Shown: in pieces, positions 21,001 to 24,000 of the stretch | Numbering within the stretch: the stretch's first letter is position 1 | How the letters are laid out: every line of letters starts with the position of its first letter | IMG/VR virus record: IMGVR_UViG_2718218399_000002 | Length of the DNA stretch: 39,647 nt | Source: a virus | Taxonomy: Duplodnaviria; Heunggongvirae; Uroviricota; Caudoviricetes | Strand: one strand, 5' to 3' | Made by a program: the position numbers

Positions 21001-24000
21001 GGTTGCCACCGGCGCAGAGTGCCGATGCGGCCCTGCTGCCCGCGTTGCGTCTGGGGAATGCCCGGGCAGATGATCTGGTGCGCAATAACGGAATAGCGGC
21101 CAATGCGGTGGCACTGCATAAGGATCACATTGTCGGGCATATGTTTCTTATCAGCTACCGTCCGAACTGGCGCTGGCTGGGGATGCGGGAGACCGCAGCA
21201 AAAGCTTTGTCGATGAGGTGGAGGCGGCCTGGTCGGAATACGCCGAAGGGATGTCTGGCGAGATCGACGTGGAAGGAAAACGCACGTTCACGGAATTTAT
21301 CCGTGAAGGTGTGGGCGTTCATGCGTTTAACGGCGAAATCTTTGTGCAGCCGGTCTGGGATACGGAAACCACGCAGTTATTCCGTACGCGTTTTAAAGCC
21401 GTGAGTCCGAAACGGGTGGACACGCCAGGACACGGTATGGGGAACCGTTTTCTGCGGGCCGGGGTGGAGGTCGATCGATATGGCCGTGCCGTTGCGTACC
21501 ATATCTGTGAGGATGATTTTCCTCGCTCCGGGAGTGGACGATGGGAACGGATCCCGCGTGAACTTCCCACCGGGCGTCCGGCCATGCTGCATATTTTCGA
21601 GCCGGTGGAGGACGGGCAGACCCGTGGGGCCAACCAGTTTTACAGCGTCATGGAACGGCTGAAGATGCTCGATTCCCTGCAGGCAACACAGCTTCAGTCG
21701 GCCATTGTGAAAGCCATGTATGCAGCGACGATTGAAAGTGACCTTGATACCGAAAAGGCCTTTGAATATATCGCCGGTGCGCCGCAGGGGCAGAAGGATA
21801 ATCCGCTTATTAATATTCTGGAGAAGTTCTCCAGCTGGTATGACACGAATAACGTGACGCTGGGTGGTGTCAAAATTCCGCACCTTTTCCCCGGGGATGA
21901 TCTGAAACTACAGACTGCGCAGGATTCAGACAATGGATTTTCGGCGCTTGAACAGGCGCTGCTGCGGTATATCGCCGCCGGTCTTGGCGTTTCCTACGAA
22001 CAGTTGTCCCGTGATTACTCGAAGGTCAGTTATTCAAGTGCCAGGGCCTCTGCCAATGAGTCGTGGCGCTATTTTATGGGGCGGCGAAAATTTATTGCGG
22101 CCCGGCTGGCCACGCAGATGTTTTCCTACTGGCTGGAAGAGGCACTTCTTCGGGGATTATCCGTCCGCCACGGGCGCGTTTTGATTTTTATCAGGCGCGA
22201 TCAGCCTGGTCACGGGCAGAGTGGATTGGTGCCGGAAGAATGGCCATTGACGGGCTCAAGGAGGTTCAGGAATCGGTGATGCGCATTGAGGCCGGACTGA
22301 GCACGTATGAGAAAGAGCCGGCGCTGATGGGCGAGGATTATCAGGACATTTTCCGCCAGCAGGTCAGGGAATCTGCAGAGCGGCAAAAAGCCGGACTCTC
22401 ACGTCCGGTGTGGATAGCGCAGGCGTATCAGCAGCAGATAGCGGAGAGTCGCAGGCCGGAAGAGGAGACAACACCCCGTGAGACGTAATCTTTCACACAT
22501 TATTGCCGCAGCATTCAATGAACCGCTGCTTCTGGAGCCCGCCTATGCGCGGGTTTTCTTTTGCGCGCTCGGGCGCGAGATGGGGGCAGCAAGTCTTTCG
22601 GTACCACAGCAGCAGGTACAGCTTGATGCTCCCGGAATGCTGGCTGAAACGGACGAGTACATGGCCGGAGGTAAACGACCGGCCCGTGTTTACCGGGTGG
22701 TGAACGGTATTGCTGTACTGCCGGTGACCGGCACGCTGGTGCACCGGCTGGGGGGTATGCGGCCATTTTCCGGAATGACAGGCTATGACGGCATTGTCGC
22801 CTGTCTTCAGCAGGCAATGGCGGATAGCCAGGTGCGGGGCGTACTGCTGGACATTGACAGTCCGGGCGGGCAGGCCGCCGGCGCGTTTGACTGCGCTGAC
22901 ATGATTTACCGCCTCCGTCAGCAGAAGCCGGTCTGGGCACTGTGCAATGACACGGCCTGTTCTGCAGCCATGCTGCTGGCGTCGGCCTGCTCCCGACGGC
23001 TGGTTACCCAGACATCCCGTATCGGCTCCATTGGCGTGATGATGAGCCATGTCAGCTATGCCGGTCATCTGGCGCAGGCCGGTGTGGATATCACGCTGAT
23101 TTACTCAGGGGCGCACAAGGTGGATGGCAATCAGTTTGAAGCCTTACCGGCAGAGGTTCGCCAGAACATGCAGCAGCGCATTGATGCGGCGCGCCGGATG
23201 TTTGCCGAAAAAGTGGCCATGTTTACCGGTCTGTCTGTTGATGCCGTCACGGGAACAGAGGCCGCCGTTTTGAAGGTCAGTCCGGCATTGATGCCGGGCT
23301 GGCGGATGAATTAGTCAATGCGTCGGATGCCATCAGTGTGATGGCCACGGCGCTGAACAGTAATGTCAGAGGAGGCACTATGCCGCAATTAACTGCAACG
23401 GAAGCCGCCGCGCAGGAGAACCAGCGAGTGATGGGGATCCTGACATGCCAGGAAGCGAAAGGACGTGAACAGCTTGCCACGATGCTGGCAGGACAACAGG
23501 GCATGAGCGTTGAACAGGCCCGGGCGATTCTGGCCGCGGCGGCACCGCAGCAGCCGGTGGCATCCACGCAGAGTGAAGCCGATCGCATTATGGCGTGTGA
23601 AGAAGCGAACGGTCGTGAACAACTGGCGGCAACGCTGGCGGCGATGCCGGAGATGACGGTGGAAAAAGCCCGCCCGATCCTGGCTGCTTCACCGCAGGCG
23701 GATGCCGGACCCTCACTCCGTGATCAGATCATGGCACTGGATGAGGCAAAAGGGGCTGAGGCGCAGGCTGAACAGCTGGCTGCCTGCCCGGGAATGACTG
23801 TGGAGAGCGCCCGGGCTGTGCTGGCTGCGGGATCAGGTAAGGCAGAACCGGTCTCTGCATCCACAACCGCCCTGTTTGAACGCATCATGGCGAACCATTC
23901 ACCGGCTGCGGTACAGGGTGGCGTGCCACAGACGTCAGCAGACGGTGATGCGGACGTGAAAATGCTCATGGCCATGCCATGAAGTCAGTGCTGACCATCA

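Follow-up and report, generated by a model that had tools for sequence, protein, structure and literature searches.

In bacteriophage lambda, the protease gpC and the scaffold gpNu3 come from overlapping coding regions (NC_001416, 4418-5737 and 5132-5737), in which an S49 protease domain is followed by a scaffold region with an internal start. Nu3 is a scaffold needed for the portal to be incorporated, and interactions of Nu3 with itself, with C, with E and with B have been reported (PMC3224144); it is able to exit the shell uncleaved, and in the scaffolds of P22 and phi29 coat binding is achieved via helix-loop-helix modules (PMC3185693). For phage 21, GenBank record M81255.1 ('Bacteriophage 21 head gene operon') annotates gene 5 as the analogue of lambda C and, nested with it, gene 6 as the analogue of Nu3 with a ribosome-binding site (RBS) of its own; gene 6 holds three repeat_region features, labelled 'Tri1 box', 'Tri box' and 'Tri3 box', each described as 'function unknown; putative'. 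The subject of this report is the homologous scaffold gene in a 39,647-nucleotide (nt) stretch of DNA (IMG/VR record IMGVR_UViG_2718218399_000002; hereafter, the window), a lambda-like O157:H7 prophage, in which three successive protein repeats occupy the place of these boxes.

Like lambda, the window encodes an S49 protease domain and, after it, a scaffold region with an internal start. The window protein and lambda gpC are 58% identical overall, and have in common a motif (RIMGILNCEEAHGREEQARVLAETPGMTVKTARRILAAAPQ) and a C-terminal tail of the same type; lambda carries a single copy of the motif, whereas the window carries three, and lambda has the longer linker between the protease and the repeat unit (median of 80 amino acids (aa) in one-unit proteins, against 41 aa in three-unit proteins). 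The annotated start of Nu3 also lies further upstream in lambda, at residue 239 of C, than that of the phage 21 scaffold, at residue 302. The similar lengths of Nu3 (201 aa) and gp6 (200 aa) were considered as a case of length conservation and this was rejected, since the annotated starts are at non-homologous positions. The window genes occupy the lambda-type position; the portal gene lies upstream, and the gene for the head decoration protein (24019-24366), then a truncated major capsid gene, follow.

The repeats coincide with the Tri boxes of phage 21

The plus-strand open reading frame (ORF) at 23338-23982 yields a 214-aa translation with three successive tandem units of approximately 38-42 aa each. 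All three are encoded on the plus strand: unit 1 at 23425-23550 (RVMGILTCQEAKGREQLATMLAGQQGMSVEQARAILAAAAPQ), unit 2 at 23584-23697 (RIMACEEANGREQLAATLAAMPEMTVEKARPILAASPQ) and unit 3 at 23725-23841 (QIMALDEAKGAEAQAEQLAACPGMTVESARAVLAAGSGK), so that unit starts are spaced by 159 nt and then by 141 nt. When the annotated Tri boxes of M81255.1 were aligned to the window, they coincided with these units; the Tri1 box (5542-5645 of the record) corresponds to window positions 23447-23550, the Tri box (5682-5792) to 23587-23697 and the Tri3 box (5823-5936) to 23728-23841.

A preliminary description of this DNA had placed three successive units at 23430-23830, within the Nu3-like scaffold region of gene C, and had given lambda one. 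Translation and shuffling bear out both the number and the location of the units: local BLOSUM62 scores between units were 101, 87 and 91, against means of approximately 26-28 for shuffled sequences (standard deviation approximately 5), giving z values of 11.4-14.8, and none of 1000 composition-preserving shuffles matched an observed score. The statement on lambda was also correct: with a hidden Markov model (HMM) of the unit, gpC gave a single match, at aa 363-400. At 23878 the start 'ERIMANH' occurs a fourth time, an echo of a few residues with no further significant similarity (z of about 0-1).

Within the window, protein identity among the units is approximately 48-61%, and the positions E-A-x-G-R-E, G-M-T-V-E and A-R-x-x-L-A-A recur in register. 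Their DNA identity is 56-68%, and the longest exact run in register is 8 nt. Tandem Repeats Finder (TRF) reported no tandem array in the window DNA, and a DNA repeat search returned only imperfect segments of 12-25 nt at 69-92% identity. The triplication is a diverged one, visible in the protein only and barely in the DNA.

The correspondence with phage 21 extends well beyond the repeats. When positions 22478-23982 were compared with phage records by megablast, phage 21 (M81255.1 and OL657228.1) was 98.5% identical over 1505 of 1506 nt, with 22 differences, and a set of lambda-like coliphages matched at 95-98.6% identity; OL657228.1 names the two products 'capsid protease/scaffolding protein' and 'scaffolding protein'. 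Phage 21 and the window agree in gene order (portal, protease/scaffold, decoration protein shp/D, major capsid), and in both the sequence presents an internal RBS and ATG for a 200-aa gene 6 product. The two differ in that the window has lost 1 nt from a run of five T, which breaks the frame of gene 5 and is probably an assembly error, and in that the prophage carrying the window copy, of O157:H7, is defective and without most of the major capsid gene. The preliminary description had suggested that a triplicated motif might alter procapsid assembly, which is speculative; phage 21 is viable with its three units. By alignment, the repeats are the Tri boxes already known and annotated, and their recognition here is a rediscovery and not a new element; its value as a discovery is small, the boxes having stood in the phage 21 head operon record for decades and the gene occurring in 2031 of 5426 complete E. 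coli genomes, about a third. M81255 reportedly accompanied a 1993 article by Smith and Feiss (Gene 126:1-7). A literature search on the phage 21 head genes and the Tri boxes, within the set of papers available, gave nothing on either.

Few other signals overlap the repeats. An Rfam scan of the repeats and their opposite strand gave no match, a promoter and terminator scan gave no signal within them, and the strand opposite carries only GC-rich shadow ORFs, with nothing else in a composition scan. In OL657228.1, two minus-strand matches to a 'CII binding site' pattern (ttgynnnnnnttgy) are annotated in gene 6 (locus L002, 2409-2422 and 2643-2656); these correspond approximately to window positions 23385-23398 and 23619-23632, and one of them falls inside Tri box 2. 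The annotations look like mere pattern matches.

Copy number and age of the units

To place the three-unit arrangement among its relatives, the unit HMM was scored on C homologues from 160 loci drawn from species-representative genomes and IMG/VR. Three units were found in E. coli, Shigella and E. albertii (94-100% identity), in Trabulsiella guamensis (71%), in Providencia alcalifaciens (62%) and in a group at 65% identity (L152-L164), whereas one unit was found in lambda-type proteins and in some 60 other species, including Enterobacter, Kluyvera, Vibrio, Pseudomonas and Marinobacter. Among the proteins that passed length and motif filters, 77 had three complete units, 3 had two and 49 had one; three units were thus kept in 77 of the 80 scored relatives of the phage 21 type. 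The exceptions within this type are rare deletion variants (L147, L137 and P0016/P0020/P0021).

For a broader sample, the three window units were combined into a profile, and a search of 1.84 billion representative proteins with it (E<=1e-3) gave 461 matches. The best 150 of these were examined, 143 of them newly fetched and the other 7 fetched earlier. A single unit was present in 137 of the 143; among fetched matches of at least 380 aa, 54 had one unit and 1 had three. Peptidase_S49 was detected in 65 of the 143 and CLP_protease in 23, the rest being short fragments or stand-alone scaffold ORFs. No Pfam family covered the unit itself in the 143 homologues or in the window ORF. The motif that defines the lambda-family Nu3 scaffold has no Pfam family, and its 461 representative proteins could serve to define a new family of scaffold domains. 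Judged from these counts, the ancestral and usual state across all relatives is one copy.

Units at the same position in different lineages are mostly 63-84% identical in amino acids, compared with 44-63% for neighbouring units within one protein. Since each unit is mostly closer to its same-position counterparts in other genera (Salmonella, Trabulsiella and Providencia relatives), the triplication predates the divergence of those lineages. Relative to the orthologues from Trabulsiella, Providencia and the 65%-identity group, each of the three units had a nonsynonymous divergence (pN) of 0.16-0.35 and a synonymous divergence (pS) of 0.52-0.93; because pN lies below pS in every unit, all three copies are maintained by purifying selection. 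In an evenly spaced sample of full-coverage E. coli genome matches, 35 of 36 had no unit-scale length change. The triplication is, on this comparative evidence, an old and stable family feature of lambda-like prophages of the phage 21 type.

Variants in copy number do occur, but are rare. Locus L147 is without exactly 150 nt (window 23464-23613), joined at an 8-nt microhomology (CGTGAACA) to give a two-unit hybrid; L137, P0009 and P0011 are missing 57 nt inside unit 2, and P0016, P0020, P0021 and P0094 have other deletions. A four-unit E. coli protein, P0027 (locus L167, 1-1043), belongs to a lambda-like head module and has an exact 46-aa period. As in the window, its tandem motif stands ahead of decoration (HDPD) and Phage_cap_E genes and is followed by the same C-terminal tail; its units are more alike than those of the window (71-89% identical in protein), and the two proteins are just 47% identical. 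The DNA of its units is only 71-79% identical, and because they are more alike in protein than in DNA, the four-unit expansion is also old and under selection. A homologue search with gp6 was dominated by partial E. coli fragments, and was useful only for the deletion variants and the four-unit protein. In the representative library, P0133 (198 aa) is a stand-alone protein with two units and no protease domain, which suggests an independent duplication of the unit in the separately encoded scaffold of another lineage. These natural variants with one, two, three and four copies form a ready series for studying scaffold valency in T=7 procapsid assembly.

Two kinds of anomalous record were encountered in these surveys. 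A gene C identical to that of lambda was present on short contigs, several at coverage of about 1 (L015, L017-L024, L041, L042 and L051), from assemblies labelled Neobacillus, Chromatium, Kitasatospora, Shewanella, Pseudomonas, Akkermansia, Oceanobacillus, Leeuwenhoekiella, Herbaspirillum and Enterococcus; these are almost certainly contamination with lambda control DNA. P0144, read directly, is a chimeric 'protein' in which lambda gpC is joined to tape-measure fragments; P0123 and P0124 are listed alongside it, and Pfam matches to Nu1, gpA, gpW, tail L and tail U on other representative proteins suggest similar fusions. Lambda vectors or deletion derivatives deposited in public data are the probable origin of the gpC chimeras, which would then not be natural fusions.

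Predicted structure and proposed role

An AlphaFold2 (AF2) model of gp6, built on an alignment of 23 sequences, places three short helices in each unit (I-M-x-x-x-E, Q-L-A-x-x-L-A and V-E-x-A-R-x-I-L-A-A) at a predicted local distance difference test (pLDDT) of 75-83. The linkers have a pLDDT of <65 and the predicted template modelling score of the whole is 0.28; the tail has a helix at residues 161-172 and is of low confidence elsewhere. One unit modelled alone forms a helix-loop-helix. The models suggest that the units are independent small helical modules on flexible linkers, in the manner of beads on a string.

Two features of the family bear on what such modules might do: within the region common to protease and scaffold, no other element is as conserved as the unit, and the unit occurs almost only with prohead proteases of the S49/ClpP type. 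We reasoned that, because of this conservation and this near-constant association, the unit may be the protein-interaction module of the scaffold, serving scaffold-scaffold contacts or contacts with the major capsid protein or the portal in the procapsid. From the one-copy state, an old tandem triplication, accompanied by a linker some 40 aa shorter, became fixed in the lineage that includes phage 21, the prophages of E. coli, Shigella and E. albertii, and the Salmonella-, Trabulsiella- and Providencia-type relatives. In the mechanism that we propose, each unit would fold autonomously, as helix-kink-helix-loop-helix, on a flexible string; with three copies, the scaffold would be a multivalent counterpart of lambda Nu3, and by the same means the units would target the protease to the procapsid. 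Taken together, we put at roughly 0.85 the probability that the Tri boxes are three diverged copies of a ~38-aa helical motif of the lambda-family Nu3-type scaffold, an old and fixed triplication that would serve as a multivalent interaction module.

Several observations weigh against this proposal. Neither gp6 nor the single-unit model had a significant fold match in the PDB, where a sequence search with the scaffold gave one chance match (E=1.3). The two AF2 models disagree on the kink of the first helix at KGRE, and both alignments are shallow. The title of a reference listed in PMC11565965 calls lambda gpNu3 intrinsically disordered, and the picture of an autonomous folded module may be overstated. 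The note in M81255.1 itself gives the Tri boxes as 'function unknown', and in the window prophage, where the major capsid gene is deleted, the scaffold is without function in situ. The likeness to the coat-binding helix-loop-helix of P22 gp8 and phi29 gp7 (PMC3185693), a small helical hairpin of an internal scaffold with a gene of its own, is a functional analogy only, drawn through the predicted helix-loop-helix of the unit; the P22 hairpin is single and at the extreme C-terminus, whereas the window motif is internal, repeated, followed by a 46-aa tail and shared with the protease, and no significant sequence or fold similarity of the unit to the solved P22 and phi29 scaffold hairpins was found.

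Alternative explanations for the repeats

A different role is conceivable for the end of the unit, in which L-A-x-x-P-G-M-T-V-E-x-A-R-x-[IV]-L resembles a helix-hairpin-helix (HhH) element. In its more general form, which we regard as unlikely, the unit would be a degenerate HhH that senses DNA or another common ligand and triggers release of the scaffold, and the series of one to four copies would tune valency, procapsid assembly or the kinetics of exit. Still more specifically, and in our view very unlikely, the element would bind DNA non-specifically, so that the scaffold senses incoming DNA and is released or exposed to the protease, three copies raising the avidity for DNA. Residues 140-163 of the gp6 ORF do give a weak match to Pfam HHH (E=0.022, 15.0 bits), and T2SSK, a family containing HhH motifs, matches at the same place and is matched by 3 of the 143 homologues, at up to E=2.7e-4. 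In the window scaffold ORF, however, all Pfam matches (DUF7178, HHH, T2SSK and Asparaginase_C) were below threshold; the HHH score falls short of the PF00633 gathering threshold of 24 bits and concerns one unit only. The second glycine of the G-h-G hairpin is missing, and the units are net acidic or neutral (rich in E and D), which is unfavourable for DNA binding, and HhH-like hairpins also serve protein-protein contacts. In favour of the idea, DNA-induced exit of the scaffold has been proposed for phi29 (PMC3185693).

The preliminary description had also raised the possibility of a slippage hotspot. In that case the triplication would be a recent and unstable expansion by slippage or recombination, with copy number varying between related prophages. 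Rare variants speak for it: the in-register loss of 150 nt at an 8-nt microhomology in L147, the 57-nt deletion of L137, P0009 and P0011 and the deletions of P0016, P0020, P0021 and P0094; the four-unit P0027/L167 and the two-unit P0133 indicate that the motif has been duplicated more than once. The bulk of the evidence is contrary. The units have 56-68% DNA identity, with no exact in-register run above 8 nt and no TRF array; they are positionally orthologous across genera, and even the four-unit variant is old and selected (71-79% identity in nucleotides, 71-89% in amino acids). Comparison of repeat number among relatives, which had been proposed as the check, found three units essentially uniformly (77 of 80 scored relatives, with no unit-scale change in 35 of 36 sampled E. 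coli matches), as expected of an ordinary family feature. This explanation is already contradicted and largely refuted, and we consider it highly improbable. That the repeat is a chance or compositional effect of a low-complexity, disordered scaffold rich in Ala, Glu and Gln is refuted: the region is indeed Ala-rich, at approximately 62% GC, and Nu3 is disordered according to the reference title in PMC11565965, but no composition-preserving shuffle scores as high as the alignments of the units (z = 11-15), E-A-x-G-R-E, G-M-T-V-E and A-R-x-x-L-A-A recur in register, and a single-unit profile retrieves 461 of 1.84 billion proteins, nearly all of them prohead protease or scaffold.

Gene C, the nested scaffold gene and the frameshift

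The S49 prohead-protease part of gene C (phage 21 gene 5) lies at 22478-23314 on the plus strand, ending early after a frameshift in the window. This ORF matches Pfam Peptidase_S49 (PF01343; E=5.6e-28, 98.3 bits against a cut-off of 24.9) and PHROG 53 (head maturation protease). The homologue of phage 21 gene 6, the analogue of lambda Nu3, is intact at 23380-23982 on the plus strand; it encodes a 200-aa scaffolding protein from the ATG at 23380, preceded by an AGGAGG sequence at 23370-23375 (plus strand) that was read from the sequence and is the gene 6 RBS in M81255.1 and OL657228.1. Two PHROGs match the scaffold ORF, in three stretches each: 8940, that of lambda Nu3 ('capsid assembly protein'), and 8399, a head scaffolding protein. 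After the last unit, a C-terminal tail at 23842-23979 (plus strand), of the form F-E-x-[FI]-M ... D-x-x-x-x-L-M-x-M-P, was delineated by alignment with lambda and other homologues; it is present once in both one-unit and three-unit proteins, with 39-62 aa in all classes and 46 aa in the window protein.

Although the repeats lie within the scaffold region of C, as the preliminary description had it, they stand outside the C reading frame in the window as given. The split of gene C there comes from the loss of a single T; where relatives have T5, the window has T4 at 23268-23271 (plus strand), and this 1-nt deletion puts the protease ORF and the scaffold in separate frames. Among complete E. coli genomes, 477 match the 60-nt segment, and none of these has the four-T allele; phage 21, strain 86-24 and every one of the 477 matching genomes have the scaffold in frame with the protease. 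When positions 18000-32000 were compared with the finished O157:H7 strain 86-24, nine 1-nt homopolymer deletions (in runs of G4-G9, A5 and T5) and no substitutions were seen; they lie at 19045, 19513, 20856, 21199, 22151, 23267, 26171, 26253 and 27387, and frameshift the terminase, gpW, portal, gene C, tail assembly and tape-measure genes. Because all nine differences are homopolymer deletions, the signature of under-calling, the split of gene C is probably an assembly or sequencing artefact, and the breaks in the terminase, portal and tail genes are most likely artefacts as well. A programmed frameshift at the T run was considered and rejected, the ORF being continuous with T5 in all relatives and the other differences from 86-24 being homopolymer deletions too. 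The signature warns against reading frameshifts and apparent pseudogenes of the window as biology, gene C included; the nested scaffold gene is intact whether or not the deletion in the T run is real.

Prophage context

Downstream of the decoration gene, the major capsid gene (lambda E homologue, approximately 24424-24750) is cut after about 88 codons and runs into the region of the major tail protein (V-like). Finished O157:H7 genomes carry the same annotated truncation ('incomplete major capsid protein'); the deletion is therefore real and leaves the prophage unable to build heads, and the window scaffold gene is therefore a passenger.

Three further features of the window were recorded. At 13154-14464 there is a 1.3-kb element that is 99.8% identical to a frameshifted IS3-family transposase element of O157:H7 PV15-279, at a position other than in that strain. 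A tRNA cluster at 9938-10187 reads Met(CAT)-Arg(TCG)-Arg(TCT), the rare-codon set that is common upstream of late genes in lambdoid prophages of enterohaemorrhagic E. coli; in a related O157:H7 prophage, RefSeq lists the counterpart of the first of these tRNAs as tRNA-Ile, and a CAT anticodon modified with lysidine reads Ile. Lastly, a sodC cargo gene (Cu/Zn superoxide dismutase family) lies at approximately 31401-31928 on the minus strand, between a tail assembly gene and gpJ, according to the annotation of strain 86-24.

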